64,000 bases of DNA from Gammaproteobacteria bacterium (GCA_965215225.1 OZ244039.1:687771-751770), one strand, 5' to 3'; counted from the stretch's first letter, positions 31,861-63,925 are shown. Numbers and translations are program-made. The notes: generated by a model not told the origin, from the sequence alone.

Positions 31861-32051
31861 ATCCTAAGTGCAATACCTCAAGATTATAATTTGGCAACTG
31901 GTGTGGCACTAGTGGTGGGAATTTGCTTGATGTAAATTCATTCATAAATGATATAATACTCGTATAGCGAAAACTAAAAAGTAAGTCAATTTTTACAAGT
32001 TAATCAAAACTTTGATGGTAAAATTACTTTCATCAATATTATAAGGAGCTT

Positions 32052-36166: not shown

Positions 36167-37460
36167 ATTCCCACTATAAGTGCAACGCCTCTTTTTTTTA
36201 GAAGGGATTATACAATCCCATCCAAGAAAACCAAAAGAGAGGTCTCGTGTAAAAAGCATTATTTTGTCTTTCAAAAAAGAACGAGCAATGATAGAAAAAT
36301 GAGGAGAGAAGGAAAGAGCATGCGCTCTATAGCTCGGCGCCTAGATCCTTGTTCTTCTACTATTAGCCAAGAGATGCAGCCCAATAGCGGGAAGCGCGGC
36401 GCCCGTCTTTGCAAGCGCATCAAAGAAGCCAAGCCAGACATTTAGAACCTTCTTACTATGAGGTTTTAACTGATCGGATGAAGGAAAAAGCCCGCACTTT
36501 ATTAGAGCGCCAATAGAGTCCAGTCGGCTGGCGTTATGCAGGGGTGTCCTCTTCTAAAAATACGCTGTATTGGTGGATAGAAAAGAATCGCAAAGCAGGT
36601 GGTGACCTACATCCTGCGATGCAATCAAGGACGCCGTCATGCTCTATGGACGAAAAGCCTATTCGCAGTGCATTCCAGGGCGGGTCGGCATAGAAAAGCG
36701 TCTAGCCATAGTCGAAGAACGAAAGCGTCTAGGCGACTGGGAAGCCGATACCATGCGGCCATCATTGCCCACCATTAAGGCTTCCTGGTGACTCTAGTGG
36801 ATCGAAAACTTCTCGGGTCGGCATAGAAAATCATCCAGCCATAGTGGAAAAACGAAAACGACTAGGCGATTGGGAAGCCGATACCACGCGCCCATCATTG
36901 CCCACCATTAAGACTTCTTGGTGACTCTGGTGGATCGAACTTCTCGTCTCGGCATAGAAAAGCGTCCAGCCATAGTCGAAGAACGAAAGCGTCTAGGCGA
37001 CTGGGAAGCCGATACCAACCATCAAGGATTCTTAGTGACCCTGGTCGAACGAACTTCCCGTACTATTCTGATAGCCAAGGTGCCTCGCAAAGAAAAAGAC
37101 TTAGTCGCAAAAGCTATCCTTGCTATGCTCCAACTCATCGCAGACTATGCCTATACCATCTGACAATGGCTGTGAGTTCAGCGACCATTAGAATATCGCT
37201 GAGAAACTCGATTGCGACACCTACTTCGCCACTCCTTATCGCAGCTGGGGAAGAGGTGCCAATGAAAATGCCAATGGACTCATTCGCCAGTAGCTGCCAA
37301 AAAGAATGTCCATCCGAAATTTATCCAACCAAATAATAACACAAATCACCAACCGATTGAACCACCGACCACGAAAGTGCCTCGGATTCAAAACACTCGC
37401 TGAGGTGTTCCAACAACTCAGCGAGGCAGACTATGATTTAGCAACAGGTGTTGCACTTTA
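36167..37460 (+). mobile_element. IS30-family element, degenerate copy (transposase with multiple frameshifts/stops and ~120-bp internal tandem repeats at 36640-37000); IR-like ends ataagtgcaac / gttgcactttaa
   Basis: Fragments MRSIARRLDPCSSTISQEMQPNSGK.. (HTH), ..KRKRLGDWEADT.., ..FATPYRSWGRGANENANGLIRQ.., ..LNHRPRKCLGFKTLAEVF.. in different frames. Confidence 0.7.
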
Positions 37461-37570
37461 AATGTTAATCCACCATATCCGTATGTGGATAACTTAGCAA
37501 AGCATCTTAATGTAATTGTCAATTGATTCTGTCCAGCATATTAATCGGGATCGAATATGCTTTGAATCGC

Positions 37571-37603
37571 GGGGGGGGGGGGGGGGGGGGGGGGCTTTTT
37601 TTT
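37571..37603 (+). repeat. G24 homopolymer followed by T8 at the boundary between IS cluster and CRISPR array
   Basis: Direct count of 24 consecutive G (37571-37594), c, then 8 T. Confidence 0.9.
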
Positions 37604-37626
37604 GTAAACGAAAATTTAACTAAAAC

Positions 37627-40600: not shown

Positions 40601-43600
40601 GATTTGCGGGCGCTCTCCGATGAGTTAAAATCGGCAGTATAGGGATACCATTTGAAGCACTGTTGTGATTTGCGGGCGCTCTCCGATGAGTTAAAATAGA
40701 CAAGGGCAGATACGCCCTCGACATTAAGGTTGTGATTTGCGGGCGCTCTCCGATGAGTTAAAATCACCTCTTTAATCAATGACAACTACGCAAGTTGTGA
40801 TTTGCGGGCGCTCTCCGATGAGTTAAAATTAGAAATTAAACGCCCCGCGCCACGCCTGAGTTGTGATTTGCGGGCGCTCTCCGATGAGTTAAAATATATA
40901 GGACGGGCTGGTGCTATTATACCAGTTGTGATTTGCGGGCGCTCTCCGATGAGTTAAAATAAGTCCCTGCTCACAGGCGAGCGCGCCCGCGTTGTGATTT
41001 GCGGGCGCTCTCCGATGAGTTAAAATACGGCAATCGCGATAATCAATGAGATGAACGTTGTGATTTGCGGGCGCTCTCCGATGAGTTAAAATTAAATATG
41101 ATGTGCTGCTTAAAACCATCGCGTTGTGATTTGCGGGCGCTCTCCGATGAGTTAAAATTAAGTAAAGAGGCGATGGTCTATTATGCTAAGTTGTGATTTG
41201 CGGGCGCTCTCCGATGAGTTAAAATCAATATTTGCACCCGGTCTTAATGCCAGCCGTTGTGATTTGCGGGCGCTCTCCGATGAGTTAAAATCTACCTATC
41301 ACGATGTCGAGCGCTACGATAGTTGTGATTTGCGGGCGCTCTCCGATGAGTTAAAATTCCGGGTGATGGAGCATGCCATAGATATAAGTTGTGATTTGCG
41401 GGCGCTCTCCGATGAGTTAAAATGATGGGGTATGATAGAATATTAGTTAGACAGTTGTGATTTGCGGGCGCTCTCCGATGAGTTAAAATTATCTCCAATA
41501 TTAGCCAGCCTTATCCTTAGTTGTGATTTGCGGGCGCTCTCCGATGAGTTAAAATGATAGTCCAACCAATCATTAAACGCTTGCAGTTGTGATTTGCGGG
41601 CGCTCTCCGATGAGTTAAAATCAACTTATCCAAATCTACCAGGTCATAATAGTTGTGATTTGCGGGCGCTCTCCGATGAGTTAAAATCTCTCATATTGTC
41701 TTATAGCACAATAAAGAGTTGTGATTTGCGGGCGCTCTCCGATGAGTTAAAATAATGTGAAAAAGCAAGCGACCTGTTTTATAGTTGTGATTTGCGGGCG
41801 CTCTCCGATGAGTTAAAATTCTTGCGAGCCGCGGGCTTGCGCCAGAACTGTTGTGATTTGCGGGCGCTCTCCGATGAGTTAAAATATAAAAAAGACAATA
41901 GAGCAACAACAATACGTTGTGATTTGCGGGCGCTCTCCGATGAGTTAAAATAGCCAGGTGAAGCGAGCCACCTATTCTTTAGTTGTGATTTGCGGGCGCT
42001 CTCCGATGAGTTAAAATGGCTATCTTGGTATATGTGTTCATAATTTTGTTGTGATTTGCGGGCGCTCTCCGATGAGTTAAAATCTATTCGGCGGAGTAGA
42101 GCTACTACATAAGGTTGTGATTTGCGGGCGCTCTCCGATGAGTTAAAATGACCGCTCCGCCCATTCTTCTTTATGCCGGGTTGTGATTTGCGGGCGCTCT
42201 CCGATGAGTTAAAATGGCGGACCTCTGCCATGGCTTTTCCATATCGTTGTGATTTGCGGGCGCTCTCCGATGAGTTAAAATTAGCCCCAACCCAGATATA
42301 ACTAGAATTAAGTTGTGATTTGCGGGCGCTCTCCGATGAGTTAAAATGCCATCAGCCACCATCCAAACTTCTTATAAGTTGTGATTTGCGGGCGCTCTCC
42401 GATGAGTTAAAATGGTTATCTTCGCCAGTCTCTTCGCAACATTGTTGTGATTTGCGGGCGCTCTCCGATGAGTTAAAATCTATCGGCGATTCAAAAGACC
42501 CGGCTAAAAGTTGTGATTTGCGGGCGCTCTCCGATGAGTTAAAATATTTAATCTATTGCTAATTATCATCATATAGTTGTGATTTGCGGGCGCTCTCCGA
42601 TGAGTTAAAATGTTTGTAGGGCTGGTAGTTTTGAGGTTTGTGTTGTGATTTGCGGGCGCTCTCCGATGAGTTAAAATCTTCTTTGCCGAATTGATACGCC
42701 AGCTTTAGTTGTGATTTGCGGGCGCTCTCCGATGAGTTAAAATCTGTGGTTTCTCTGATGTCTGTGAAGCCCAGTTGTGATTTGCGGGCGCTCTCCGATG
42801 AGTTAAAATAGAGAAAAATAAAGTAGCCCCACCTTTTAGGTTGTGATTTGCGGGCGCTCTCCGATGAGTTAAAATCCTCAGTGTTGCTTATCTTTTCAAT
42901 AGTTCGTTGTGATTTGCGGGCGCTCTCCGATGAGTTAAAATCACCAAGAGTGCTATGAATTTGCGCCTCTTGTTGTGATTTGCGGGCGCTCTCCGATGAG
43001 TTAAAATCACTGAGAACCAAGCCATCCTTTCTCACCTGTTGTGATTTGCGGGCGCTCTCCGATGAGTTAAAATCTCCCTCCTGAACCAGAACATGACCGA
43101 GCCGTTGTGATTTGCGGGCGCTCTCCGATGAGTTAAAATGCGGGTGATCCCGGCGGCTATCTCTACCCGGTTGTGATTTGCGGGCGCTCTCCGATGAGTT
43201 AAAATCACATAGGCATACCTTCTATGCCTCGGCGGGTTGTGATTTGCGGGCGCTCTCCGATGAGTTAAAATACTTGACTGATTAGCAAGGCGTGATTCAA
43301 GGTTGTGATTTGCGGGCGCTCTCCGATGAGTTAAAATCAAAGTAGAACCAATCGAAATAAGAAGTCCGTTGTGATTTGCGGGCGCTCTCCGATGAGTTAA
43401 AATTCAAACTATAAGCTGAACTACTTGGAATATGTTGTGATTTGCGGGCGCTCTCCGATGAGTTAAAATCCAAGAACGGCGCGGGGGAGTATGAGGGGAG
43501 TTGTGATTTGCGGGCGCTCTCCGATGAGTTAAAATTCCCAGCCCGAGTCAGCGTATCTTTCAATGGTTGTGATTTGCGGGCGCTCTCCGATGAGTTAAAA

Positions 43601-46600
43601 TAAGAGGACTGGTCGGCTTGGCGGGTGGTAGTTGTGATTTGCGGGCGCTCTCCGATGAGTTAAAATTCTTAAGGACGAGGTGGCGAAGGGTGATGAGTTG
43701 TGATTTGCGGGCGCTCTCCGATGAGTTAAAATTACGAGTGTAGATGAAGCAGCTCACTATTAGTTGTGATTTGCGGGCGCTCTCCGATGAGTTAAAATAG
43801 AGACCAAAAACGGCCAGAGGATGATAAAGTTGTGATTTGCGGGCGCTCTCCGATGAGTTAAAATTTCTTATGACTGGGGCTCAGCTAGCCCATTGTTGTG
43901 ATTTGCGGGCGCTCTCCGATGAGTTAAAATTCCCTTTTGCCTCTAAATAAGCAGATTGAAGTTGTGATTTGCGGGCGCTCTCCGATGAGTTAAAATTGGT
44001 TCTTTCGAAGAGACCGATGAAAGGGAGTTGTGATTTGCGGGCGCTCTCCGATGAGTTAAAATGGCTTTCAGGTATTCTATTGAAGAGCAGAAGTTGTGAT
44101 TTGCGGGCGCTCTCCGATGAGTTAAAATTGGCGGCTGCTGGGGAGTTGTCAATTTCAGGTTGTGATTTGCGGGCGCTCTCCGATGAGTTAAAATCAGCAA
44201 GGAATTTTCAGAAAAGCTAGAACAGTTGTGATTTGCGGGCGCTCTCCGATGAGTTAAAATGGGCTAGTATGGGGAGGTTATTAATTGGTCGTTGTGATTT
44301 GCGGGCGCTCTCCGATGAGTTAAAATGCCGCCGGAGCATATAGACAAGAATCCGGTGTTGTGATTTGCGGGCGCTCTCCGATGAGTTAAAATGCTGAATC
44401 GCAGGGCAGATGGGTCTGGCAGGTTGTGATTTGCGGGCGCTCTCCGATGAGTTAAAATGTGTTGCCAAAGCTGAGCTAGCTCATCCGCGTTGTGATTTGC
44501 GGGCGCTCTCCGATGAGTTAAAATGAAGCAGTTTATCCGTGCTCTTGAAAGGAAGTTGTGATTTGCGGGCGCTCTCCGATGAGTTAAAATGAAGCAGTTT
44601 ATCCGTGCTCTTGAAAGGAAGTTGTGATTTGCGGGCGCTCTCCGATGAGTTAAAATCACATTCAGAAAGAAATCGGGCTGGAGTTTGTTGTGATTTGCGG
44701 GCGCTCTCCGATGAGTTAAAATTGCCACCAGTTAACGGTCTAGCATATTGGAGTTGTGATTTGCGGGCGCTCTCCGATGAGTTAAAATACCGGGCCAGAT
44801 GAGGAGTATAGGGATTGGGTTGTGATTTGCGGGCGCTCTCCGATGAGTTAAAATCATAGCCTCCTTAGTTAACTCATCCCGCCAGTTGTGATTTGCGGGC
44901 GCTCTCCGATGAGTTAAAATTTAGGAGACTATTATGCGAACTAAAATTCCGTTGTGATTTGCGGGCGCTCTCCGATGAGTTAAAATGAAAGAGACGGCAT
45001 ATGCCCCAAATGGATAGTTGTGATTTGCGGGCGCTCTCCGATGAGTTAAAATAGTAGTAGCCGTGCCCTGTGTGATATTGGAGTTGTGATTTGCGGGCGC
45101 TCTCCGATGAGTTAAAATTTTCTGGGCGATTGGCTTACCAGAAAAGAGTTGTGATTTGCGGGCGCTCTCCGATGAGTTAAAATGTGATAAGAGCGATATA
45201 GTTAAGATACTTCGTTGTGATTTGCGGGCGCTCTCCGATGAGTTAAAATGGCCGGGAAGGTGGTCCCAGCCGGGACCAGGTTGTGATTTGCGGGCGCTCT
45301 CCGATGAGTTAAAATAAGGAACGGCGGAAGGATTGATGGGATTAAGTTGTGATTTGCGGGCGCTCTCCGATGAGTTAAAATGAGCAAATTAGCGAGCAGC
45401 TTAATCAATAAGTTGTGATTTGCGGGCGCTCTCCGATGAGTTAAAATGGTCGCGGTGGCAATCCCGCCGCCAACCTCGTTGTGATTTGCGGGCGCTCTCC
45501 GATGAGTTAAAATGAACATAAGGGAGGACGAGTTGAAGGGGAAGTTGTGATTTGCGGGCGCTCTCCGATGAGTTAAAATCTGCCAAAAATCGTCCCTTCT
45601 CTTGACAAGGTTGTGATTTGCGGGCGCTCTCCGATGAGTTAAAATTTGAATAAAATAAATACCTGTTTTACTATAGTTGTGATTTGCGGGCGCTCTCCGA
45701 TGAGTTAAAATTCAATCATCTTTCTTTCTTTCTCGATTCATGTTGTGATTTGCGGGCGCTCTCCGATGAGTTAAAATGATGAGCCGTGGCATTATACCAG
45801 CCGCGACGTTGTGATTTGCGGGCGCTCTCCGATGAGTTAAAATCGGCTTTAAGGTGCTGAACTGATGAAGTTAGTTGTGATTTGCGGGCGCTCTCCGATG
45901 AGTTAAAATCTATTCGCTTGAACGCCTTGCCTTCTTACTGTTGTGATTTGCGGGCGCTCTCCGATGAGTTAAAATTTTATTGAATATCAGACTTACGAAG
46001 ATGCAGTTGTGATTTGCGGGCGCTCTCCGATGAGTTAAAATATCAAGTATTGCCAATGCCTCTCCTTGATGGTTGTGATTTGCGGGCGCTCTCCGATGAG
46101 TTAAAATTGAGATTAAAGTCAGTATCAGCCAAGAAAGGTTGTGATTTGCGGGCGCTCTCCGATGAGTTAAAATTAACTTTCATAATACTAAACAAAAAAA
46201 GGCGTTGTGATTTGCGGGCGCTCTCCGATGAGTTAAAATAATGCTTTAGGCAAAGTCATCGGCTCGCTAGTTGTGATTTGCGGGCGCTCTCCGATGAGTT
46301 AAAATCGGGAGGGCTGGAGGGTTTTATCACCTACAGTTGTGATTTGCGGGCGCTCTCCGATGAGTTAAAATATGCGAGGGGCTGCCATATCCATATCACC
46401 GGTTGTGATTTGCGGGCGCTCTCCGATGAGTTAAAATATGCACGGAGCGGGGGAGCTGAGCATCTCGGTTGTGATTTGCGGGCGCTCTCCGATGAGTTAA
46501 AATGAACGATTTGGAGCTTCTTGGCGTTTTGCAGTTGTGATTTGCGGGCGCTCTCCGATGAGTTAAAATGCCAGATAATCAAGCCCATCCCAAACCAATG

Positions 46601-49600
46601 TTGTGATTTGCGGGCGCTCTCCGATGAGTTAAAATCCACGCTCAAAAATGAGCTGGCTGAGCTTAGTTGTGATTTGCGGGCGCTCTCCGATGAGTTAAAA
46701 TGGTAGAAAGCGACTGGACTGAAGCAGTAGCGTTGTGATTTGCGGGCGCTCTCCGATGAGTTAAAATGACTATTGACGCGACCCATTATGAACCAGAGTT
46801 GTGATTTGCGGGCGCTCTCCGATGAGTTAAAATGACTATTGACGCGACCCATTATGAACCAGAGTTGTGATTTGCGGGCGCTCTCCGATGAGTTAAAATT
46901 CCTGTTCTTGTAGATCGTTCGACCCGCTAGTTGTGATTTGCGGGCGCTCTCCGATGAGTTAAAATCAGTTGACGCCAACCACACGCGCTCATTAAGTTGT
47001 GATTTGCGGGCGCTCTCCGATGAGTTAAAATGAGCATAAAGATAAGCTGGAATATAAGATAGTTGTGATTTGCGGGCGCTCTCCGATGAGTTAAAATCCA
47101 TCATATACCGGTAACGTGGCTTAGCACGTTGTGATTTGCGGGCGCTCTCCGATGAGTTAAAATCAACTCGCCATTAAGATGACTAAGCTATTGGTTGTGA
47201 TTTGCGGGCGCTCTCCGATGAGTTAAAATACTTTATATGGCGGAATGTATCCGACCAGCGTTGTGATTTGCGGGCGCTCTCCGATGAGTTAAAATAATTT
47301 TTACAGGCGGAAGGAATTTTTAAGAGTTGTGATTTGCGGGCGCTCTCCGATGAGTTAAAATCTCGGACTCATTCGCTAAGCGAGACTCAAGGTTGTGATT
47401 TGCGGGCGCTCTCCGATGAGTTAAAATTTGTTTGGATGGCTATTAATGAAGCGAACCGTTGTGATTTGCGGGCGCTCTCCGATGAGTTAAAATATTGCTT
47501 CGGGGAAGGCGGCCGCCGGGCCGGTTGTGATTTGCGGGCGCTCTCCGATGAGTTAAAATAAGAAGGCGCTGAAATACCACCACCAACCGGTTGTGATTTG
47601 CGGGCGCTCTCCGATGAGTTAAAATTTGATATAAAGGGTCAGATGTAGGATGGCGGTTGTGATTTGCGGGCGCTCTCCGATGAGTTAAAATGCTAGTAAG
47701 ACCATAACTCATCTAGCGCTTGTTGTGATTTGCGGGCGCTCTCCGATGAGTTAAAATCTTCGGTGAGTGAGATGGTGAAGCACGCAAGTTGTGATTTGCG
47801 GGCGCTCTCCGATGAGTTAAAATGGAGGTTCCTGCCTATGATGGCGGGCTGGAGTTGTGATTTGCGGGCGCTCTCCGATGAGTTAAAATACTCAGCTGGC
47901 TAATGAGCTGAGCTTAAAGGTTGTGATTTGCGGGCGCTCTCCGATGAGTTAAAATCACTCGGCAGGCGCTCGCACAACCAACCCAGTTGTGATTTGCGGG
48001 CGCTCTCCGATGAGTTAAAATACAAAACATCGGAGCGTTCCTGCATCGTTCGTTGTGATTTGCGGGCGCTCTCCGATGAGTTAAAATTGATGATACTCCC
48101 ATCTTAAACCCTGAGGAGTTGTGATTTGCGGGCGCTCTCCGATGAGTTAAAATTTGCGCTCTGTCGTGGAATAATGAAGAAGAGTTGTGATTTGCGGGCG
48201 CTCTCCGATGAGTTAAAATCTCGATACTACTATCGCCCGGCAAACCGGCGTTGTGATTTGCGGGCGCTCTCCGATGAGTTAAAATATAGCCATCCTCATC
48301 CTCTATCTCATCCTTGTTGTGATTTGCGGGCGCTCTCCGATGAGTTAAAATGTAAGCGGACGGCGGCGTCTTAAACAATACGTTGTGATTTGCGGGCGCT
48401 CTCCGATGAGTTAAAATTACCAAGCCCAAATCCAAACAACCAAACAAGTTGTGATTTGCGGGCGCTCTCCGATGAGTTAAAATTTTGGGCTGAGGCGAGG
48501 CATCCCATGAGGTGTTGTGATTTGCGGGCGCTCTCCGATGAGTTAAAATGGCGCTTTATCTTGGTCGTTCGGACCGAGTGTTGTGATTTGCGGGCGCTCT
48601 CCGATGAGTTAAAATATCGAGAGAAAATATAAGGTGCATAGAGAAGTTGTGATTTGCGGGCGCTCTCCGATGAGTTAAAATGTTTATTAGCAATACTCAA
48701 TCTGCAAGGCGGTTGTGATTTGCGGGCGCTCTCCGATGAGTTAAAATATACCAAGACCGCTCCCGTGATGATATCGCGTTGTGATTTGCGGGCGCTCTCC
48801 GATGAGTTAAAATACCATAGAACAATATATTGTCATTGTTCCTGTTGTGATTTGCGGGCGCTCTCCGATGAGTTAAAATCATCGCAATTGCATTGATATC
48901 TACTCAGAAGTTGTGATTTGCGGGCGCTCTCCGATGAGTTAAAATACAAATATAGTGAGCCCTCCTCTTATATGCGTTGTGATTTGCGGGCGCTCTCCGA
49001 TGAGTTAAAATATAATACCCGAGCACGCCAAAGCATAATAAGTTGTGATTTGCGGGCGCTCTCCGATGAGTTAAAATTGATTGATCGAGACAAGTTACCA
49101 CTGCTTAGTTGTGATTTGCGGGCGCTCTCCGATGAGTTAAAATACCGTAATGGATTAATATACCCGACCGACCGTTGTGATTTGCGGGCGCTCTCCGATG
49201 AGTTAAAATCGATGTTGATCTGCGGGTAATAAGAACTATGTTGTGATTTGCGGGCGCTCTCCGATGAGTTAAAATCCCGAGAGCATTGAATTATGGCTGG
49301 ACGGCAGTTGTGATTTGCGGGCGCTCTCCGATGAGTTAAAATCCCATATACCGCCAGTAAGACCGGGCGCATGTTGTGATTTGCGGGCGCTCTCCGATGA
49401 GTTAAAATCATGCCACCTATATTGCGGACGCATTGCGCGTTGTGATTTGCGGGCGCTCTCCGATGAGTTAAAATGCAATCCTGCCGTATAATAATAGCTG
49501 AGAGGTTGTGATTTGCGGGCGCTCTCCGATGAGTTAAAATTTATGTGCCGAACGGATGGGAGGAAGGGGAGTTGTGATTTGCGGGCGCTCTCCGATGAGT

Positions 49601-52600
49601 TAAAATCCGCTTGGGAAGAATTAAACATAGTGATAGGTTGTGATTTGCGGGCGCTCTCCGATGAGTTAAAATCGCCGATCACACCACATCAATCGGCTCG
49701 CGGTTGTGATTTGCGGGCGCTCTCCGATGAGTTAAAATATATGGCAGGGGGGACCATTATCCAGCACGGTTGTGATTTGCGGGCGCTCTCCGATGAGTTA
49801 AAATGTCTGTTGATTCAAAATTATCATCGCCATAGTTGTGATTTGCGGGCGCTCTCCGATGAGTTAAAATCGCTATTCCTTTCTCTACTGCCATTATACA
49901 GTTGTGATTTGCGGGCGCTCTCCGATGAGTTAAAATCATAAATAAATGTATTATGCTTACTATTATGTTGTGATTTGCGGGCGCTCTCCGATGAGTTAAA
50001 ATGACTACTGATATTCCGGCATCCGGTCTTGAGTTGTGATTTGCGGGCGCTCTCCGATGAGTTAAAATTGTAGTAAGAACGAGTCGGTTGGGTAGTATGT
50101 TGTGATTTGCGGGCGCTCTCCGATGAGTTAAAATGGATTTGCCGTCCATCAAAATAATAGATTATGTTGTGATTTGCGGGCGCTCTCCGATGAGTTAAAA
50201 TCCATTGGCATCGATTCAGTTCAAACTGAAAGTTGTGATTTGCGGGCGCTCTCCGATGAGTTAAAATCGATTATTGCCCATAAAACCAGAAGGGGCAGTT
50301 GTGATTTGCGGGCGCTCTCCGATGAGTTAAAATCGCTGACTTATGGTGAAGCGGCGACTGTTGGTTGTGATTTGCGGGCGCTCTCCGATGAGTTAAAATC
50401 GGATGATACCGTGGATGTTCTTACCCTCCGTTGTGATTTGCGGGCGCTCTCCGATGAGTTAAAATTGACTTTATGAAGATAAACCAGCATGCGCTGTTGT
50501 GATTTGCGGGCGCTCTCCGATGAGTTAAAATTTCAAACCAAATATCCTTTTCTGAATGTTCGTTGTGATTTGCGGGCGCTCTCCGATGAGTTAAAATCTG
50601 ATGATGTAATTATTGAAGGGTCCCAGGGTTGTGATTTGCGGGCGCTCTCCGATGAGTTAAAATAAAAGTTCTGGGCTACTCATCGCACGGGCGGTTGTGA
50701 TTTGCGGGCGCTCTCCGATGAGTTAAAATGCTCGTTTTGTTGGTTTTTTTGGTGCGTCAGTTGTGATTTGCGGGCGCTCTCCGATGAGTTAAAATAATTC
50801 GTTTCCGCATCGGTCATGTTCTTAGGTTGTGATTTGCGGGCACTCTCCGATGAGTTAAAATTTTTCTTGTATGGGACTTATGAATGCTATTGTTGTGATT
50901 TGCGGGCGCTCTCCGATGAGTTAAAATTACCAATCCTATATTCCCCCCAGATACTAAGTTGTGATTTGCGGGCGCTCTCCGATGAGTTAAAATCCGAGGC
51001 AACCTACATCCTCACCACCCCCGGTTGTGATTTGCGGGCGCTCTCCGATGAGTTAAAATCGGTTGAATTTCAACAATTCAGACAACCCAGTTGTGATTTG
51101 CGGGCGCTCTCCGATGAGTTAAAATCAATAAGAACGGATTGAATGATAACTGAATGTTGTGATTTGCGGGCGCTCTCCGATGAGTTAAAATTAATGGTTT
51201 GTGTTTAGTTTCTTTGCCTTTGTTGTGATTTGCGGGCGCTCTCCGATGAGTTAAAATTATGCCTATAAAGAGCCAATGGCACTACCAGTTGTGATTTGCG
51301 GGCGCTCTCCGATGAGTTAAAATTCTGCGGGCGGAGGAGTGGAATTCTATCATAGTTGTGATTTGCGGGCGCTCTCCGATGAGTTAAAATACACGCTCCA
51401 GGACTTATTTAGTCCTGTGCGTTGTGATTTGCGGGCGCTCTCCGATGAGTTAAAATTGGATGGCTAAGCTGAAGCTCCTTTCATTAGTTGTGATTTGCGG
51501 GCGCTCTCCGATGAGTTAAAATAGCTGGTAGGGATTTATCAGCTGGAGGTTAGTTGTGATTTGCGGGCGCTCTCCGATGAGTTAAAATTATCGGTCGTCT
51601 TATCAATACCTCATTAACGTTGTGATTTGCGGGCGCTCTCCGATGAGTTAAAATGGTCAGCTAGCCCGTTCAGTATAGGCTGGTGTTGTGATTTGCGGGC
51701 GCTCTCCGATGAGTTAAAATGTATATTTTAAGGGCGGCGGGGAGTTTATTGTTGTGATTTGCGGGCGCTCTCCGATGAGTTAAAATAGGCTCACGCTTAG
51801 GCGCTCGGGTTGAATTGTTGTGATTTGCGGGCGCTCTCCGATGAGTTAAAATTCACGGACCGAGGCAATGATTTATTGGGACGTTGTGATTTGCGGGCGC
51901 TCTCCGATGAGTTAAAATGATGATAGCCATGAGGGTTGGTTTTTGAATGTTGTGATTTGCGGGCGCTCTCCGATGAGTTAAAATGCGCCAAAGATGGCAG
52001 CTGAATAATAAAGTGTTGTGATTTGCGGGCGCTCTCCGATGAGTTAAAATATGATTGGCTAGGCAAGGGTATAAAGAGCCGTTGTGATTTGCGGGCGCTC
52101 TCCGATGAGTTAAAATCTCTGTCCCGCTCATACCAATATTCATCTTGTTGTGATTTGCGGGCGCTCTCCGATGAGTTAAAATCCAAACCAAAATGGCGCT
52201 TATAAGCCAAAGGTTGTGATTTGCGGGCGCTCTCCGATGAGTTAAAATGATGACCTTGACACTCTATCGGATAGAGTGGTTGTGATTTGCGGGCGCTCTC
52301 CGATGAGTTAAAATCGGGGAAAACGCCCCCCGTAGCAATAACTTGTTGTGATTTGCGGGCGCTCTCCGATGAGTTAAAATCGCCCGCGCACCGCCTTACT
52401 GCACTATGACGTTGTGATTTGCGGGCGCTCTCCGATGAGTTAAAATGCGCTCGTTAGCTCGGGTCTTTCTTAACTCGTTGTGATTTGCGGGCGCTCTCCG
52501 ATGAGTTAAAATCTTAGCTAATCAGGCAATAACAGGGGCAGCGTTGTGATTTGCGGGCGCTCTCCGATGAGTTAAAATTAATGAACTGAAATCCCCCAGA

Positions 52601-55600
52601 AGCTAATCGTTGTGATTTGCGGGCGCTCTCCGATGAGTTAAAATAAAAGTTCTATCGCTATCCCCATCAGCCTCGTTGTGATTTGCGGGCGCTCTCCGAT
52701 GAGTTAAAATCAAATGAACCGGGTGATCATCTTAAAGAAGGTTGTGATTTGCGGGCGCTCTCCGATGAGTTAAAATCTAGGGTCTCTTCGACCCGCAAGA
52801 CCAAAGGTTGTGATTTGCGGGCGCTCTCCGATGAGTTAAAATCAAGTATTTTATTAAGGCGTGCGCGCGGGTGTTGTGATTTGCGGGCGCTCTCCGATGA
52901 GTTAAAATGATGATTTGTTGGTTATAAATCTCACCAAAGTTGTGATTTGCGGGCGCTCTCCGATGAGTTAAAATTCGCACTCTTGCTTCAATCTCCGCCA
53001 GTCCGTTGTGATTTGCGGGCGCTCTCCGATGAGTTAAAATTGGTCGCCAGGATGATCGAGAAAGTGGGGAGTTGTGATTTGCGGGCGCTCTCCGATGAGT
53101 TAAAATGAAGGGCAAGCCCCACCCTGCCACCGTGGCGTTGTGATTTGCGGGCGCTCTCCGATGAGTTAAAATAAGAGGGGCTTGATCAATTCTTCGACCA
53201 AGGTTGTGATTTGCGGGCGCTCTCCGATGAGTTAAAATTTGCGAGCCAAGTGTTCGCGATCACGGGGGCGTTGTGATTTGCGGGCGCTCTCCGATGAGTT
53301 AAAATGATCAACCGTCGCGTCAATCGGCTCTTGTTGTTGTGATTTGCGGGCGCTCTCCGATGAGTTAAAATCATTTAGTTTGTTTGCCGGGCAAAGTGAG
53401 AGTTGTGATTTGCGGGCGCTCTCCGATGAGTTAAAATACCGATGGCGCGCGGCTCATCCGAGCCGAAGTTGTGATTTGCGGGCGCTCTCCGATGAGTTAA
53501 AATTTGGGGATGGATGCAAATTGGCCGCCCCTAGTTGTGATTTGCGGGCGCTCTCCGATGAGTTAAAATGATGATTTGTTGGTTATAAATCTCACCAAAG
53601 TTGTGATTTGCGGGCGCTCTCCGATGAGTTAAAATGCTGCGCCAGCTGGGGCAAGGGCTTGGCGAGTTGTGATTTGCGGGCGCTCTCCGATGAGTTAAAA
53701 TTTAAGGTTGGTGGGAGTGAGCGTGAGCGCGGTTGTGATTTGCGGGCGCTCTCCGATGAGTTAAAATAGAAGATAAAGGAGGAATTATTACGCCTATGTT
53801 GTGATTTGCGGGCGCTCTCCGATGAGTTAAAATTTATTGCGATCAGGCTTCACCCGAATCTGAGTTGTGATTTGCGGGCGCTCTCCGATGAGTTAAAATA
53901 TCAGCGGCGACTACAAAAGAGGCGCTAGAGTTGTGATTTGCGGGCGCTCTCCGATGAGTTAAAATTTACTTTTCTTTACTTAGTTTACTACAGTAGTTGT
54001 GATTTGCGGGCGCTCTCCGATGAGTTAAAATCCCTATACTCCTCATCTGGCCCGGTATGCAGTTGTGATTTGCGGGCGCTCTCCGATGAGTTAAAATCAA
54101 GCCTGTGGTATCCACTGAATTGGAGCAGTTGTGATTTGCGGGCGCTCTCCGATGAGTTAAAATACTAAAATCGACCAACAAAGGAGAAGGCACGTTGTGA
54201 TTTGCGGGCGCTCTCCGATGAGTTAAAATCGACCTCATATAGAGCCGAAAGCAGACCTAGTTGTGATTTGCGGGCGCTCTCCGATGAGTTAAAATAATAG
54301 CGCATGCGGTTCTCTTTCTTAGGGAGTTGTGATTTGCGGGCGCTCTCCGATGAGTTAAAATTCATTGTATTATACAACGCAGTCAGCACATGTTGTGATT
54401 TGCGGGCGCTCTCCGATGAGTTAAAATCGACCTCATATAGAGCCGAAAGCAGACCTAGTTGTGATTTGCGGGCGCTCTCCGATGAGTTAAAATTTTAAAC
54501 ACATCCAAAGCCGATTCAATAGCGTTGTGATTTGCGGGCGCTCTCCGATGAGTTAAAATGTGAGCGGGACTCTGCCCGACCAATTTGACGTTGTGATTTG
54601 CGGGCGCTCTCCGATGAGTTAAAATGCTCGTACAGCTGATTAGTACCAAACTCTTGTTGTGATTTGCGGGCGCTCTCCGATGAGTTAAAATCGTGAAAAA
54701 CAACACCAGTATTGCTAGGCAGTTGTGATTTGCGGGCGCTCTCCGATGAGTTAAAATAAAATAATCATCCTAGATCTCCGTAGAGGTGTTGTGATTTGCG
54801 GGCGCTCTCCGATGAGTTAAAATAATCCAAAGAAGATCGGCTATTATCTGAAGTTGTGATTTGCGGGCGCTCTCCGATGAGTTAAAATCGATTCCGAGAA
54901 CGAGATGATCTGTGCGAGGTTGTGATTTGCGGGCGCTCTCCGATGAGTTAAAATGGTGCTCGGCCGAGGTATTATTAAAGACCAGTTGTGATTTGCGGGC
55001 GCTCTCCGATGAGTTAAAATCGGCGTAGCTAAGGACATTCAATCGGTAAAGTTGTGATTTGCGGGCGCTCTCCGATGAGTTAAAATCGCCCGCCATCATA
55101 ACTCACCGATTGGCCGGTTGTGATTTGCGGGCGCTCTCCGATGAGTTAAAATTCAACCGAGGGGCGAGTATCTTAATTGATGGTTGTGATTTGCGGGCGC
55201 TCTCCGATGAGTTAAAATTGGTGGGGGGAGATCGAACGGGAGGACAAGTTGTGATTTGCGGGCGCTCTCCGATGAGTTAAAATAAAATTAATGTCAACGC
55301 CATAATGGGTGAGGTTGTGATTTGCGGGCGCTCTCCGATGAGTTAAAATCCCATTTTATTTTACTAGCGTCCATCGATAGTTGTGATTTGCGGGCGCTCT
55401 CCGATGAGTTAAAATTCATAATTTTTCCTCAAAGTTATGATTACTGTTGTGATTTGCGGGCGCTCTCCGATGAGTTAAAATCTATTTTAGGTAGTGATAT
55501 AAGCGCTGAATGTTGTGATTTGCGGGCGCTCTCCGATGAGTTAAAATGAGCAGCAGAAGTCAATAAGTGGCTTTCTAGTTGTGATTTGCGGGCGCTCTCC

Positions 55601-58600
55601 GATGAGTTAAAATAAGGCTAAGACGACCGCGATCACATTCTATGTTGTGATTTGCGGGCGCTCTCCGATGAGTTAAAATGGCAACTCCTTAAAGATTACC
55701 CCGAGCTAGTTGTGATTTGCGGGCGCTCTCCGATGAGTTAAAATGAGAAGGGTAAGGGGCGTTACCAAACCGATGTTGTGATTTGCGGGCGCTCTCCGAT
55801 GAGTTAAAATTCATTCTCAAATTCAGCCGTGAGTGTTACCGTTGTGATTTGCGGGCGCTCTCCGATGAGTTAAAATCCCATGCAACCAGCCCTACAACTG
55901 AGCCCGGGTTGTGATTTGCGGGCGCTCTCCGATGAGTTAAAATCGGGGGCGCCGCAATGATAGATAAGCCCCTGGTTGTGATTTGCGGGCGCTCTCCGAT
56001 GAGTTAAAATAGATTAGTGAAGGCGACTTATCGATGATTGGTTGTGATTTGCGGGCGCTCTCCGATGAGTTAAAATGCTTAGTCACGCTGAATTGACCGG
56101 ATGAGAGTTGTGATTTGCGGGCGCTCTCCGATGAGTTAAAATTCGGTACTAAGGACGGGGCGGCTTCAATAAGTTGTGATTTGCGGGCGCTCTCCGATGA
56201 GTTAAAATTTTTAATAGGGAAGTCGCCTTCTTTGCTGAGTTGTGATTTGCGGGCGCTCTCCGATGAGTTAAAATGAACGCCCCGCGATAAATACGGCATG
56301 GACCGTTGTGATTTGCGGGCGCTCTCCGATGAGTTAAAATCGAGCTAAACTGAATGTGGGCGCGCGGTCGTTGTGATTTGCGGGCGCTCTCCGATGAGTT
56401 AAAATTTATAATCATAAGCCTTACTTCTATTATGAGTTGTGATTTGCGGGCGCTCTCCGATGAGTTAAAATCATAGTCATCGGGGTTTGTTCCCACTGCC
56501 CGTTGTGATTTGCGGGCGCTCTCCGATGAGTTAAAATTATGAATGAGCGATTTAATGAGTTATGCCGGTTGTGATTTGCGGGCGCTCTCCGATGAGTTAA
56601 AATCGGCAATCCTAAGGCGCTCTGGCGGAGTAAGTTGTGATTTGCGGGCGCTCTCCGATGAGTTAAAATCGATAAGCCTAGCTGCACATCAGCGGTCGTG
56701 TTGTGATTTGCGGGCGCTCTCCGATGAGTTAAAATTTGAAGGGTGCTGTGAATAGCACCACTAAGGTTGTGATTTGCGGGCGCTCTCCGATGAGTTAAAA
56801 TTAATCGGGGCTGGATTAAAGAGAAAGAGAGGTTGTGATTTGCGGGCGCTCTCCGATGAGTTAAAATTATAGCTCATTCAACGACTTTATGATGGATGTT
56901 GTGATTTGCGGGCGCTCTCCGATGAGTTAAAATGAATGATATCATAGAGACGCGCTTATCACAGTTGTGATTTGCGGGCGCTCTCCGATGAGTTAAAATC
57001 TTAAATAGTGAGGCGCCCGCGGGGGAGCGTTGTGATTTGCGGGCGCTCTCCGATGAGTTAAAATCGATAAGCCTAGCTGCACATCAGCGGTCGTCGTTGT
57101 GATTTGCGGGCGCTCTCCGATGAGTTAAAATTATTACTCATCGGGTCTTATTACTTTGGTCGTTGTGATTTGCGGGCGCTCTCCGATGAGTTAAAATCTT
57201 CTCTGAGCAGAAGTATAGAATCGTGTTGTTGTGATTTGCGGGCGCTCTCCGATGAGTTAAAATTTATAGCGCGCCTTAAGGCAAGGCGCACGGTTGTGAT
57301 TTGCGGGCGCTCTCCGATGAGTTAAAATAGTTGATAACAATGAGCTTAATCATTATGAGTTGTGATTTGCGGGCGCTCTCCGATGAGTTAAAATCGGGCT
57401 CTAAACCAAATCTTAATAAATTTGGTTGTGATTTGCGGGCGCTCTCCGATGAGTTAAAATACTTATAGCGCGCCTTAAGGCAAGGCGCACGTTGTGATTT
57501 GCGGGCGCTCTCCGATGAGTTAAAATATCGCTATCCCTCACTCGCAAGGCAACAATGTTGTGATTTGCGGGCGCTCTCCGATGAGTTAAAATTGAACTCT
57601 ATGACACGGAGGGTAAATTTGTGTTGTGATTTGCGGGCGCTCTCCGATGAGTTAAAATGTATTATTTAAGGCAGCATTCATAGATGAAGTTGTGATTTGC
57701 GGGCGCTCTCCGATGAGTTAAAATAAGTCGGCTACCTTATCTACCATCATTGCCGTTGTGATTTGCGGGCGCTCTCCGATGAGTTAAAATTACCCGAGAC
57801 GGCTGAGTATCAGTTCTCGCGTTGTGATTTGCGGGCGCTCTCCGATGAGTTAAAATTCGCTAAGCACTGGCGGTCCAGCTTGTCTAGTTGTGATTTGCGG
57901 GCGCTCTCCGATGAGTTAAAATTGATACCTACTCATTCAATCAAGCAGTAGAGTTGTGATTTGCGGGCGCTCTCCGATGAGTTAAAATTTAATCGGGACT
58001 CAATCGTCTGGCTTACTAGTTGTGATTTGCGGGCGCTCTCCGATGAGTTAAAATCCAGCGAGGTGATGCGCCTGCCTTTATAGGGTTGTGATTTGCGGGC
58101 GCTCTCCGATGAGTTAAAATTATTCACTATAATGATGATATAACAATCAGGTTGTGATTTGCGGGCGCTCTCCGATGAGTTAAAATCTTTTATTCCGTCA
58201 GATTGCCTTATAATAGGTTGTGATTTGCGGGCGCTCTCCGATGAGTTAAAATACATCGCTTGGGGATGATGGAGTGCCTTAAGTTGTGATTTGCGGGCGC
58301 TCTCCGATGAGTTAAAATTTGTTGCCTTGCGAGTGAGGGATAGCGATAGTTGTGATTTGCGGGCGCTCTCCGATGAGTTAAAATTAAGAAGCGATTGAAA
58401 GGATGTGCTATCATGTTGTGATTTGCGGGCGCTCTCCGATGAGTTAAAATCTTATCAGCTCAGCTCTACCAGCCGGCAAGTTGTGATTTGCGGGCGCTCT
58501 CCGATGAGTTAAAATGAGCGGGGCCCCGCTAAAGAGATACTGGTGGTTGTGATTTGCGGGCGCTCTCCGATGAGTTAAAATACGCCATACCCCGAACTAG

Positions 58601-61600
58601 ATCGAGCGATAGTTGTGATTTGCGGGCGCTCTCCGATGAGTTAAAATGCTCGGTATATTCATCAATCTGCTCCTTACGTTGTGATTTGCGGGCGCTCTCC
58701 GATGAGTTAAAATAGTCTTTATTATATGAATTAGCCAGCCATTGTTGTGATTTGCGGGCGCTCTCCGATGAGTTAAAATAGTCCATCAATTTGGACCGGG
58801 TGAATAATAGTTGTGATTTGCGGGCGCTCTCCGATGAGTTAAAATAGAGAAATATTAGCTGAGTTAGCTAGTCGAGTTGTGATTTGCGGGCGCTCTCCGA
58901 TGAGTTAAAATTCGATCCAGCCGAGCCGTATCATCCTTATGTTGTGATTTGCGGGCGCTCTCCGATGAGTTAAAATGGTTATCTTCGCCAGTCTCTTCGC
59001 AACATTGTTGTGATTTGCGGGCGCTCTCCGATGAGTTAAAATGAGATTTGTTTTCATCCCGCTAATTCAGTTGTTGTGATTTGCGGGCGCTCTCCGATGA
59101 GTTAAAATTGTAGCGCCTATAAGGAATGTCGCACTTCCGTTGTGATTTGCGGGCGCTCTCCGATGAGTTAAAATGACTACTTAAAACTGCCGAGCTCAGT
59201 GAACGTTGTGATTTGCGGGCGCTCTCCGATGAGTTAAAATATATTCATCAGCCAATCTCTTATAACGCCCGTTGTGATTTGCGGGCGCTCTCCGATGAGT
59301 TAAAATCGATCTAGTAATAACTATTGAAGTATTACCAGTTGTGATTTGCGGGCGCTCTCCGATGAGTTAAAATACCTTTTGTTATTAATATAATTCCATA
59401 GGAGTTGTGATTTGCGGGCGCTCTCCGATGAGTTAAAATTCTTATTCCGCTAGTCCGTGGGTAGGAAAGGTTGTGATTTGCGGGCGCTCTCCGATGAGTT
59501 AAAATCCTCCAACCCAACCACTTCTACCCGACCCAGTTGTGATTTGCGGGCGCTCTCCGATGAGTTAAAATAGCCGGCGCCCGAACCTCGAAAGCGTTAA
59601 AGTTGTGATTTGCGGGCGCTCTCCGATGAGTTAAAATCATTCCCCCCAACTAAATTAAAGTAGTTAGGTTGTGATTTGCGGGCGCTCTCCGATGAGTTAA
59701 AATAACTAAGGGCTCTTTCTAACATTCTTAAAGGTTGTGATTTGCGGGCGCTCTCCGATGAGTTAAAATCGCTCTTGCCATTGCCTCAGCTGCTGGTTGG
59801 TTGTGATTTGCGGGCGCTCTCCGATGAGTTAAAATCCACGCGGGAGGAAGGACTTATTTAATGGGTTGTGATTTGCGGGCGCTCTCCGATGAGTTAAAAT
59901 CCCCGCTCATATTGATGACAACGGATTGTTGTTGTGATTTGCGGGCGCTCTCCGATGAGTTAAAATCACTAGCCCCGTGTGGCTGCAATTAAAGGTGTTG
60001 TGATTTGCGGGCGCTCTCCGATGAGTTAAAATGCAGCAAATCGGCTCTTATAGTCAGGATGAGTTGTGATTTGCGGGCGCTCTCCGATGAGTTAAAATTG
60101 ATGAAACGATCAACCGAGCCGCGGGCTGGTTGTGATTTGCGGGCGCTCTCCGATGAGTTAAAATGACCAGCGTCAAGAAAGAGTCAGTAGAAGCGTTGTG
60201 ATTTGCGGGCGCTCTCCGATGAGTTAAAATCATCACTTCCTATTCCGAATTCATTATTAAGTTGTGATTTGCGGGCGCTCTCCGATGAGTTAAAATTGGG
60301 AGGGATGAGCATAGGGACCTATTGGAGTTGTGATTTGCGGGCGCTCTCCGATGAGTTAAAATGCAATCGGTAATCTCTATATTCAGATATCCGTTGTGAT
60401 TTGCGGGCGCTCTCCGATGAGTTAAAATTCGATCCCAGTCCAAACAGCTGAGGCGGCGGTTGTGATTTGCGGGCGCTCTCCGATGAGTTAAAATGCTATC
60501 GCTCACCAATGTGCCGGGCGCACCGTTGTGATTTGCGGGCGCTCTCCGATGAGTTAAAATCTATTCATTATATCTAGTTGTCAACAATAGGTTGTGATTT
60601 GCGGGCGCTCTCCGATGAGTTAAAATCCTAATGAGGTCCGACAAGGCTTTATCTATGTTGTGATTTGCGGGCGCTCTCCGATGAGTTAAAATCTTTGGTG
60701 TTGGGCAGGGGTTTATCTTACTGTTGTGATTTGCGGGCGCTCTCCGATGAGTTAAAATGCATAGTAGTCTTGCGCCTCAGCATTCCTAGTTGTGATTTGC
60801 GGGCGCTCTCCGATGAGTTAAAATACCCAGCTGACTCATACCTACTATGCGACCGTTGTGATTTGCGGGCGCTCTCCGATGAGTTAAAATTAACACTACA
60901 AGACAAGCTACCACTGCTTAGTTGTGATTTGCGGGCGCTCTCCGATGAGTTAAAATCGATAAAAAGAAGTGGGCCTGGCTCGAAGAGTTGTGATTTGCGG
61001 GCGCTCTCCGATGAGTTAAAATTTGCGCTGCGCTAAGGCGTTTTGGACGGCAGTTGTGATTTGCGGGCGCTCTCCGATGAGTTAAAATATTAGGGTAATA
61101 AATCATAACTCGTTTTGAGTTGTGATTTGCGGGCGCTCTCCGATGAGTTAAAATTTAAATACCTACGCCAAAATAAAATAACCAGTTGTGATTTGCGGGC
61201 GCTCTCCGATGAGTTAAAATTGGGCGTGGTGCGAGGAGTGAGATATACCAGTTGTGATTTGCGGGCGCTCTCCGATGAGTTAAAATGTGAGCCTCCCTGC
61301 TTAGAGCACCAAGACGGTTGTGATTTGCGGGCGCTCTCCGATGAGTTAAAATCTTATTACGTTTCGGGTTAGAGCCAGATCGGTTGTGATTTGCGGGCGC
61401 TCTCCGATGAGTTAAAATTAAAGAGCCGATCCCTAATCCATTCGACCAGTTGTGATTTGCGGGCGCTCTCCGATGAGTTAAAATGAAGTGCGGGCCGAGG
61501 CGATTAAGCGCGATGTTGTGATTTGCGGGCGCTCTCCGATGAGTTAAAATACCCGTCTTGGTCGAGGCATGCGATGGCGGGTTGTGATTTGCGGGCGCTC

Positions 61601-63925
61601 TCCGATGAGTTAAAATAACAACTCATTTGGAGGTTCAGATTCTTGTGTTGTGATTTGCGGGCGCTCTCCGATGAGTTAAAATTCACTTTGGCTTTGGTGA
61701 ATGGCTCTAATGTTGTGATTTGCGGGCGCTCTCCGATGAGTTAAAATTGGCAAGCCAACGAGCGTAAGTCGAGCGGGGTTGTGATTTGCGGGCGCTCTCC
61801 GATGAGTTAAAATAACACGGATAACTTTGCCGAGCCGCCCGAAGTTGTGATTTGCGGGCGCTCTCCGATGAGTTAAAATGGACCGCTTCATAATCCTGCC
61901 CGGCCGCTAGTTGTGATTTGCGGGCGCTCTCCGATGAGTTAAAATGATCGAATTGACGCCCAGCAGGATCTGGGCGTTGTGATTTGCGGGCGCTCTCCGA
62001 TGAGTTAAAATCATCACCGCGACGATCGCGGGATGCAAGTCGTTGTGATTTGCGGGCGCTCTCCGATGAGTTAAAATTTTTTTGGCTAGCTGCCTGAACC
62101 AACTAAAGTTGTGATTTGCGGGCGCTCTCCGATGAGTTAAAATAATATATTAAGGAAGTCGCACGCGCAACCAGTTGTGATTTGCGGGCGCTCTCCGATG
62201 AGTTAAAATCCGACATATATTCATTCCAGCGCGTCTTATGTTGTGATTTGCGGGCGCTCTCCGATGAGTTAAAATCAATCGCCTCAGGTTCTCTTACCTT
62301 CATAGGTTGTGATTTGCGGGCGCTCTCCGATGAGTTAAAATCCCCAGACAAATGACTTCTCTTACTAATGAGTTGTGATTTGCGGGCGCTCTCCGATGAG
62401 TTAAAATCGCGCCCGCCGCTCAAGCTTAGGATTGCCCGTTGTGATTTGCGGGCGCTCTCCGATGAGTTAAAATGATAATCTAATAAGGATGCGAGCGCGG
62501 ATGTTGTGATTTGCGGGCGCTCTCCGATGAGTTAAAATGCTGGCTAAGAACTATCTGTTGGAGTTAGGGTTGTGATTTGCGGGCGCTCTCCGATGAGTTA
62601 AAATCTGAAACTGGCGGGCTTCAAGCCCAGCTGGGTTGTGATTTGCGGGCGCTCTCCGATGAGTTAAAATATGTGCAGGCTGAGATAGGAGCGCACTTCA
62701 GTTGTGATTTGCGGGCGCTCTCCGATGAGTTAAAATGCAAAGGACATACTTATCCCATCAGTGCTAGTTGTGATTTGCGGGCGCTCTCCGATGAGTTAAA
62801 ATGGCGTTTGAAAGTTGGGTATCAAGAAACGGGTTGTGATTTGCGGGCGCTCTCCGATGAGTTAAAATTAGGGATAGGGAAGCGCCAATGCTGAGCTAGT
62901 TGTGATTTGCGGGCGCTCTCCGATGAGTTAAAATGTATGTCCTTTGCCTCGTTTACTGAGTTGCGTTGTGATTTGCGGGCGCTCTCCGATGAGTTAAAAT
63001 CAATAAAGAACGAGGACCTGGTGAATATTGGTTGTGATTTGCGGGCGCTCTCCGATGAGTTAAAATTAGCTACCCCGCTAAGACTATTTGCTGATTGTTG
63101 TGATTTGCGGGCGCTCTCCGATGAGTTAAAATTGACTCAATGGCGGATGTTGTGAGCGGGACGTTGTGATTTGCGGGCGCTCTCCGATGAGTTAAAATCC
63201 TTCCCAATGCCTATAAAGAATGGCTTATGTTGTGATTTGCGGGCGCTCTCCGATGAGTTAAAATAAAAGCACCACAGGGGCTCTTTTAATAGAGGTTGTG
63301 ATTTGCGGGCGCTCTCCGATGAGTTAAAATGGATAGCTTTATGTTAGCCGCCCGCAATCAGTTGTGATTTGCGGGCGCTCTCCGATGAGTTAAAATTCAG
63401 ATTAAGGGAATTACTAGTCAGATTAAGTTGTGATTTGCGGGCGCTCTCCGATGAGTTAAAATCAGTTCAATGCACGCCTTCATCGGCGAGGAGTTGTGAT
63501 TTGCGGGCGCTCTCCGATGAGTTAAAATCCAGGTAGTTCAGATTATCCCACACTAAGAGTTGTGATTTGCGGGCGCTCTCCGATGAGTTAAAATTTCTAT
63601 TAAAGGAGATATACTATGGAGAATGTTGTGATTTGCGGGCGCTCTCCGATGAGTTAAAATTCTTAGTCACATCGTTATCACCAATCTCATGTTGTGATTT
63701 GCGGGCGCTCTCCGATGAGTTAAAATTAACACTACAAGACAAGCTACCACTGCTTAGGTTGTGATTTGCGGGCGCTCTCCGATGAGTTAAAATTATTTTT
63801 TGGGCTTCTGTTCTTGAGCTTAGGTTGTGATTTGCGGGCGCTCTCCGATGAGTTAAAATTGAGGACGAGCACATTTATACCGACATTGAGTTGTGATTTG
63901 CGGGCGCTCTCCGATGAGTTAAAAT
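37627..63925 (+). CRISPR. CRISPR array: ~399 copies of 36-bp repeat GTTGTGATTTGCGGGCGCTCTCCGATGAGTTAAAAT, spacers 30 bp (few 29/31), ~398 spacers; one repeat variant G17A at 50842
   Basis: Exact 66-bp periodicity verified at multiple points (37627, 37693, 37759, 37825, 37891, 37957 ... 63890); unique spacers between identical repeats; array ends 63925 followed by unique sequence. Confidence 0.97.

Follow-up and report, generated by a model that had tools for sequence, protein, structure and literature searches.

Redundant spacers in a very large CRISPR array

How does a clustered regularly interspaced short palindromic repeat (CRISPR) array come to hold the same spacer more than once? The question is raised by a 64,000-nucleotide (nt) stretch of DNA from a Gammaproteobacteria bacterium (GCA_965215225.1, OZ244039.1:687771-751770; called the window here, with positions counted from its first letter), the right-hand part of which is occupied by a single array of 398 spacers, some of them duplicated, overlapping, or related to one another on opposite strands. 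We consider it likely that this is a genuine, very large chromosomal CRISPR array, and that its redundancy reflects both misalignment between repeats and burst re-sampling of the same invader regions. The host belongs to an uncultured, probably gammaproteobacterial lineage. By its LpxC it is nearest to Gammaproteobacteria, at 57 to 59% identity, and hits of RF1 reached only 44 to 52% and were spread over many phyla.

The hallmark of a CRISPR array is a series of near-identical direct repeats of 23 to 47 nt with unique spacers of uniform length between them. In the window, Tandem Repeats Finder reported a 66-bp period spanning positions 37627 to 63929, and a parse with the repeat unit resolved this region into regularly spaced 36-nt direct repeats separated by spacers of 29 to 31 nt (Table 1). 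With 26.3 kb, the array takes up ∼1.1% of a 2.32-Mb contig, to which two proteins with exact matches point as the source.

The 398 spacers were compared with each other on both strands, by string search and all against all. An earlier note, made on this stretch from its sequence, had listed identical consecutive spacers, identical spacers far apart, and one overlapping pair; every one of these duplicates was recovered both by the string search and in the parsed array. Six pairs are exact 30-mers, namely the two tandem pairs 105/106 and 139/140 and the four separated pairs 10/386, 73/324, 232/242, and 252/255, so that "identical" holds for four of the distant pairs that had been so described; the remaining two, 289/295 and 353/396, are of 30 versus 31 nt. 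The positions that had been given were right for all starts but one, since the second copy of the spacer cgataagcc...ggtcgt (spacer 295) begins at 57065 and not at 57066. The overlapping pair 298/301 had been described as shifted by 2 nt, which is correct for the 5′ ends; the 3′ ends also differ, by 1 nt. Carrying out the all-against-all comparison that had been proposed added the pairs 109/249, 302/314, 381/384, 14/37, and 387/257 to the list. Altogether, 392 distinct sequences are present among the 398 spacers, and redundant copies make up 8 of the 398 (2%).

A looser relationship had been noticed between the spacers at 49078 and 60891. Spacer 174, at the former position, proved to be an in-register homologue of spacer 353: 19 of the last 20 nt match, and the first 10 mostly differ. 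Judged from these two sequences, the pattern would be as expected for one site, defined by a protospacer-adjacent motif (PAM), in two diverged alleles of an invader. Block duplications, which had also been proposed, were not borne out in the window: no pair of neighbouring spacers recurs together anywhere in the array, and multi-spacer block duplication is thus absent from it.

Table 1. Positions of the array, its putative leader, its variant repeat, and the duplicate, overlapping, or related spacers in the window
Feature	Position	Strand	Description
CRISPR array	37627..63925	+	399 copies of the 36-nt repeat GTTGTGATTTGCGGGCGCTCTCCGATGAGTTAAAAT, 398 spacers
Putative leader	37380..37626	+	∼89% identical to that of the sister strain; neighbouring spacers all strain-specific
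Repeat 201	50826..50861	+	Only variant repeat, G17A
Spacers 105/106	44525-44554, 44591-44620	+	Tandem, exact 30-mers
Spacers 139/140	46768-46797, 46834-46863	+	Tandem, exact 30-mers
Spacers 10/386	38257-38286, 63067-63096	+	Exact 30-mers, 376 units apart
Spacers 73/324	42414-42443, 58977-59006	+	Exact 30-mers, 251 units apart
Spacers 232/242	52909-52938, 53570-53599	+	Exact 30-mers, 10 units apart
Spacers 252/255	54230-54259, 54428-54457	+	Exact 30-mers, 3 units apart, A-B-C-A pattern
Spacers 289/295	56670-56699 (30 nt), 57065-57095 (31 nt)	+	Shared start; 295 with extra 3′ C
Spacers 298/301	57264-57292 (29 nt), 57461-57490 (30 nt)	+	One protospacer region; 5′ shift of 2 nt, 3′ shift of 1 nt
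Spacers 353/396	60891-60920 (30 nt), 63727-63757 (31 nt)	+	Shared start; 396 with extra 3′ G
Spacer 174	49078-49107		In-register diverged homologue of 353
Spacers 302/314	57527-57556, 58319-58348	Opposite strands	Reverse complements, offset 1 nt, 29-nt overlap
Spacers 109/249	44789-44818, 54032-54061	Opposite strands	Reverse complements, offset 5 nt, 25-nt overlap
Spacers 381/384	62737-62766, 62935-62964	Opposite strands	5′ ends overlap by 13 nt
Spacers 14→37	38521-38550, 40038-40067	+	11-nt suffix of 14 is prefix of 37; protospacers offset 19 nt
Spacers 387→257	63133-63162, 54560-54589	+	11-nt suffix-prefix overlap, geometry as for 14→37

Related spacers lie close together

The duplicates cannot be explained by chance. 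The number of identical 30-mers expected by chance among 398 spacers is 7e-14, and 11 pairs sharing ≥25 nt were observed versus none in shuffled spacers, where about one pair shared a 13-mer or longer and none shared 17 nt or more. The 11 strong pairs are also unevenly placed. Seven of them lie no more than 12 units apart, which has a probability of 0.059 for a random pair (binomial tail, 7e-7), and five of these seven are located between units 232 and 314. All six related pairs found in the sister strain described below are likewise close together (7e-4). If spacers were added in order, redundant sampling was therefore concentrated in time.

This clustering bears on the tandem pairs. Related pairs 2 to 12 units apart are frequent enough locally to predict ∼0.5 to 1 adjacent related pairs, and 2 were observed. 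Both tandem pairs are exact, and of the near but nontandem pairs two of five are; the exactness of the tandem pairs favours duplication over back-to-back re-acquisition only mildly.

A sister strain carries redundancy of its own

The comparison with the array of a related strain, likewise suggested in the earlier note, was made with a 1.8-Mb contig (ENA ERZ25070776 contig_12, loci L081 and L082) that was found through its near-identical LpxC. The flanking genes of this sister strain are 96.5 to 98.9% identical to those of the window (∼97 to 98% for the flanks compared), and at the homologous locus an identical 36-nt repeat begins at the same place. The comparison covers the first 75 repeats, which are all identical, and 74 spacers at the leader side. 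None of these 74 spacers occurs among the 398 of the window, as a leader-proximal left end with fast turnover would predict.

The sister array has duplicates of its own. Spacer E001 equals E005, and E002 equals E009; further along, the spacers follow the order E069-E070-E071-E070-E071-E069 (A-B-C-B-C-A). The latter contains a tandem block of two units, E070-E071-E070-E071, in which the atypical 29-nt length of E070 has been copied as well, and, to judge from its sequence, little other than misalignment between repeats would account for this block. Spacers E039 and E043 are in the same register with two internal differences, and E064→E006 is a suffix-prefix overlap of 12 nt. In all, 5 duplicates were counted in the 74 spacers (7%). 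Because the sister strain carries this redundancy of its own, duplication and re-sampling are habitual in the lineage and not peculiar to one assembly.

One pair of spacers connects the two strains. A stretch of 17 nt is common to spacer E015 (L082, 17397-17426) and, on the other strand, to spacer 234 of the window (53041-53070), with divergent sequence to either side of it; apparently, related invaders were sampled in homologous regions by both strains.

Origin of the redundant spacers

We propose that the redundancy arose in two ways. In one, the identical 36-nt repeats would misalign, by replication slippage or unequal recombination, and whole repeat-spacer units would thereby be duplicated; the tandem pairs 105/106 and 139/140 would most likely have originated by such misalignment. 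The unit duplication put forward in the earlier note is accordingly a reasonable account of these two pairs, and the E070-E071 block of the sister strain provides independent evidence for such a process. In the other, the adaptation machinery would sample the same short stretches of an invader repeatedly, in bursts of acquisition, and would so give rise to identical spacers a few units apart, slips of 1 to 2 nt, copies on opposite strands, and in-register variants from diverged alleles. The clustering would reflect acquisition near sites already targeted, as in the Cas9-cleavage-driven "priming" of type II-A systems. Repeated sampling of the same target had been suggested before as well, and it is supported by 298/301, by 289/295, by the opposite-strand pairs, and by 174 versus 353.

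How much each process contributed differs from pair to pair. Comparison of the spacers themselves leaves no way around independent acquisition for 298/301, for the pairs on opposite strands, and for 174/353 and E039/E043, which are in register but diverged; for 289/295 it is the simpler explanation. For the exact copies that lie far apart, 10/386 and 73/324, the simplest account is that a favoured protospacer was taken up again long after its first acquisition. Burst re-sampling of invader sites, and not slippage alone, would thus be the source of a sizeable share of the redundancy in this lineage.

Recombination might also be held to account for everything, by slippage or unequal crossing-over followed by deletions and small insertions or deletions (indels), with no protospacer ever sampled twice. 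About 3% of the spacers in CRISPRCasdb are duplication candidates, and of these candidates 86% are simple duplications, attributed to replication misalignment, whereas re-acquisitions amount to ∼1% (PMC11472070); the sister strain has its clear block duplication, and an indel at the junction could have given spacer 396 its extra G. Recombination cannot, however, yield the reverse-complement pairs 109/249 and 302/314, nor 298/301, in which both ends differ, nor 174/353, in which the substitutions are concentrated in one half, and 10/386 and 73/324 would each need the duplication of hundreds of units and then their near-complete deletion, which makes this explanation very unlikely. Slightly less credit still is due to the idea that the duplicates were produced by assembly, through collapse, expansion, or a chimeric consensus of heterogeneous arrays in a metagenome. 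The window does come from a 2.3-Mb metagenome-style contig, and CRISPR arrays vary within populations and are difficult to assemble. Against this stand the same types of duplicates, in denser form, in a separately retrieved second genome (the 1.8-Mb ENA contig), the unique neighbours that flank each duplicated spacer, the mere 168 nt needed to span a tandem unit, and a duplicate frequency (∼2% of spacers) that matches finished genomes; moreover, mis-assembly is not expected to give register-shifted or reverse-complement pairs.

Selection might instead have retained the copies. In an array of this size each CRISPR RNA (crRNA) would be diluted ∼400-fold, old spacers would give poor protection, and a second copy of a spacer against an abundant invader might be favoured as an amplification of dosage. 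It is accepted that crRNA dilution constrains long arrays (PMC8047081), the pairs 10/386 and 73/324 show a protospacer retaken while the old copy was still present, and duplicates recur in two strains; yet their frequency is not above that of ordinary short arrays, those duplicates that are slipped or flipped would probably be nonfunctional, and a neutral explanation suffices. We regard such selection as unlikely. An elaboration of it, to which we give a little less weight, is that an array resembling type II-C, with a promoter in each repeat, escaped the acquisition brake described for Neisseria Cas9, which responds to crRNA abundance, and grew to ∼400 units, whereupon old spacers lost their protective effect by dilution, the same protospacers were acquired anew, and duplicates were selected as a boost in dosage. 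If this were true, the duplicates would mark a functional loss of memory by dilution and would not be neutral noise.

Several observations weigh against the combination of misalignment and burst re-sampling that we prefer. All repeats but one are identical, so that no polymorphism separates duplicated from re-acquired units, and the two tandem pairs are not significantly above what local re-sampling predicts (∼0.5 to 1). The extra 3′ G of spacers 396 and 298 adjoins the first G of the repeat, and for 353/396 a 1-nt junction indel or a homopolymer miscall after duplication is a possible source of the extra G. Assembly error keeps a small probability. No cas genes or trans-activating CRISPR RNA (tracrRNA) were found in the window, which leaves the activity and type of the system unproven, and, without any protospacer found, the PAM and priming are unproven too.

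Comparison with known arrays

Slipped and flipped spacers are known from type I systems, and we know of no description of priming in type II-C. The array agrees with type I and with type II-A in its shifts of 1 to 2 nt, in its opposite-strand pairs from the same fragment, and in related spacers inserted close in time. Type II-A systems have slipped (+1) spacers as well, and where a first spacer has directed Cas9 to cut, a second is preferentially acquired nearby (PMC10415147); cleavage-driven ("primed") acquisition in type II-A is credited to Nussenzweig 2019 as cited in that article. Unlike priming in type II-A, the pattern described here is known from the array alone, without a protospacer, PAM, or cas gene having been found.

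Repeated units and blocks have long been known in CRISPR arrays (reviewed in PMC8047081), and duplicated spacers within arrays reach 1 to 11% in several species (PMC4524480, Kupczok et al.). The tandem or nearby identical units of the two strains resemble the duplications in that study and in the SpacerPlacer survey (PMC11472070), and their frequencies, ∼2% here and ∼7% in the sister strain, fall within the range of 1 to 11%. The same survey puts re-acquisitions or independent insertions at ∼1 to 2% of its candidates, whereas at least 5 of the 11 strong pairs in the window must be independent acquisitions. The redundancy is therefore real, but it is an ordinary phenomenon for which both processes are documented; what is mildly unusual is the high share of independent re-sampling.

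The size of the array is another matter. Typical bacterial arrays have fewer than 50 spacers, and the record of 587 is held by Haliangium ochraceum (PMC8047081, PMC10076291). The array resembles that giant in having hundreds of spacers in a single array, and it differs in its lineage, in its repeat type, and in belonging to a small genome (2.3-Mb contig). The average for type II arrays is about 20 ± 15 spacers (PMC4607530). If a Cas9 system adjoins the array, the 398 spacers found here would make it an extreme outlier in length among type II systems, at ∼20-fold the usual size, and ideas on the dilution of crRNAs and on acquisition regulated by Cas9 could be tested on a natural example. Duplicates, slips, and flips can serve as markers of array history, with modest practical value; more worthy of attention than the duplicates are the size of the array, its unrecorded repeat, and the complete turnover at the leader side between close strains.

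Repeats, spacers, and leader

Repeats are identical in 398 of 399 cases (Table 1), and no degeneration is seen in the last one, at the downstream end; the final 75 nt of the window, after 63925, are not repeat-like. Spacer lengths are narrowly distributed around 30 nt (n = 369), with 17 spacers of 29 nt and 12 of 31 nt. G-homopolymer miscalls were considered as a general source of the 31-nt spacers and rejected, because only 4 of these 12 end in G. Across the array (37627-63925), the last spacer base is A in 40% of spacers versus 28% overall (chi-square, 30.6), the one positional signal obtained and a bias that may reflect a preference during integration or PAM-proximal selection. The sister strain differs in this respect, with C enriched at the penultimate spacer base.

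The repeat was previously unrecorded in the databases searched (Rfam, GTDB representative genomes, JGI metagenomes, and a collection of papers). An exact search gave no match in the GTDB representatives or the JGI metagenomes, no CRISPR-DR family of Rfam matched, and the papers searched contained no match. A search of a set of 5.8 billion proteins with a chimeric translation of the three frames of the repeat returned no spurious open reading frames (ORFs) derived from such arrays.

The putative leader lies to the left of the first repeat. This flank is conserved (89% between strains) and the spacers at that end are strain-specific, suggesting that the left end is probably the entry side of new spacers. 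The leader contains a homopolymer of 24 G (37571-37594), followed by a C and eight T (to 37603); another 23 nt separate the last T from the first repeat. The poly-G tract is real and not a sequencing artefact, because it is present in the sister strain too, with 26 to 27 G and nine T (about 16385-16420 of L082). The tract may be a length-variable, and perhaps phase-variable, element of the CRISPR leader.

CRISPR type and flanking genes

From features of its repeat, the system looks like type II-C. According to Pearson et al. (PMC4607530), type II-C repeats measure 36 nt and carry the sigma-70 −10 box gnTAnaaT at their 3′ ends, spacers are ∼30 nt long, and the array lies downstream of, and convergent with, cas9-cas1-cas2; in Neisseria, every repeat drives its own crRNA (PMC12477760). 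The repeat found here starts with GTTGT and ends with GTTAAAAT, an end that fits the −10 box when read by eye against PMC4607530, and it is unstructured on both strands (z about 0). A scan of the repeat for promoters with two hexamers was negative, as it should be where a −35 element is missing. With its 36-nt unstructured repeat, ∼30-nt spacers, GTTGT start, GTTAAAAT end, and lack of upstream cas genes, the array is like those of type II-C in Neisseria and Campylobacter, whereas its spacer number and its nondegenerate terminal repeat are unlike type II.

The ORFs of ≥120 amino acids within 1-37600 contain no cas domain, and the right flank extends for only 75 nt in the window. On the type II-C model, the cas genes would sit on the minus strand just past position 64000, and none would therefore be found upstream in the window. 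The ORFs in 1-37600 are housekeeping genes, for ribonucleotide reductase, argininosuccinate synthase, ketoacyl synthase, TrkH, lipid A acyltransferase, YaaA, HemA, RF1, DciA, LpxC, DnaX, RecR, methionine aminopeptidase, and transporters, together with an N6/N4 DNA methylase.

A tracrRNA is normally encoded near cas9, which here would place it outside the window. No convincing tracrRNA-like anti-repeat was found in 1-37626. There is a weak, incomplete match at 36464-36500, in which 15 of 16 nt pair with nt 21 to 35 of the repeat and another 7 nt match nt 10 to 16; it is probably due to chance, as it lies inside the debris of an IS30-like element and leaves the 5′ half of the repeat unpaired.

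Searches for targets and PAM

The spacers had no match in GenBank phages or in PLSDB plasmids, nor in the rest of the window or the flanks of the sister strain. Six spacer patterns searched against IMG/VR, and one searched against the JGI metagenomes, gave no match. The flanks of overlapping spacers showed no 5′ consensus (CG, TT, AC, AT, AT, AG, and AA), and 3′ flanks were too few for a PAM to be read from them.

Spacers 353 and 396 have a 15-nt exact match to the N6/N4 DNA methylase gene of the window (12543-12557). The match is not significant after multiple testing, and the gene was rejected as a target; the source of the two spacers may be a mobile element that carries a related methylase gene.

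Other features of the window

Directly upstream of the leader lies the debris of an IS30-like transposase pseudogene (36300-37400) with an internal 133-bp tandem repeat (36681-37017), and a DDE transposase ORF is found at 35123-36166. Two regions of complex tandem repeats, at 30585-31849 (periods of 61 to 137 bp) and at 32125-32726 (21 to 66 bp), separate a transporter gene from an ORF of unknown function; a short-read contig of a third strain (JGI 3300007064, L083) ends at these repeats (30585-32726). A pair of inverted intergenic repeats of ∼220 bp, 87% identical (16676-16896 and 30340-30556), brackets a 13.5-kb block of housekeeping genes. In dnaX (23208-25640), a tandem repeat region rich in Lys and Glu (24385-24862) causes the length of DnaX to vary by strain (810, 865, and 728 amino acids).

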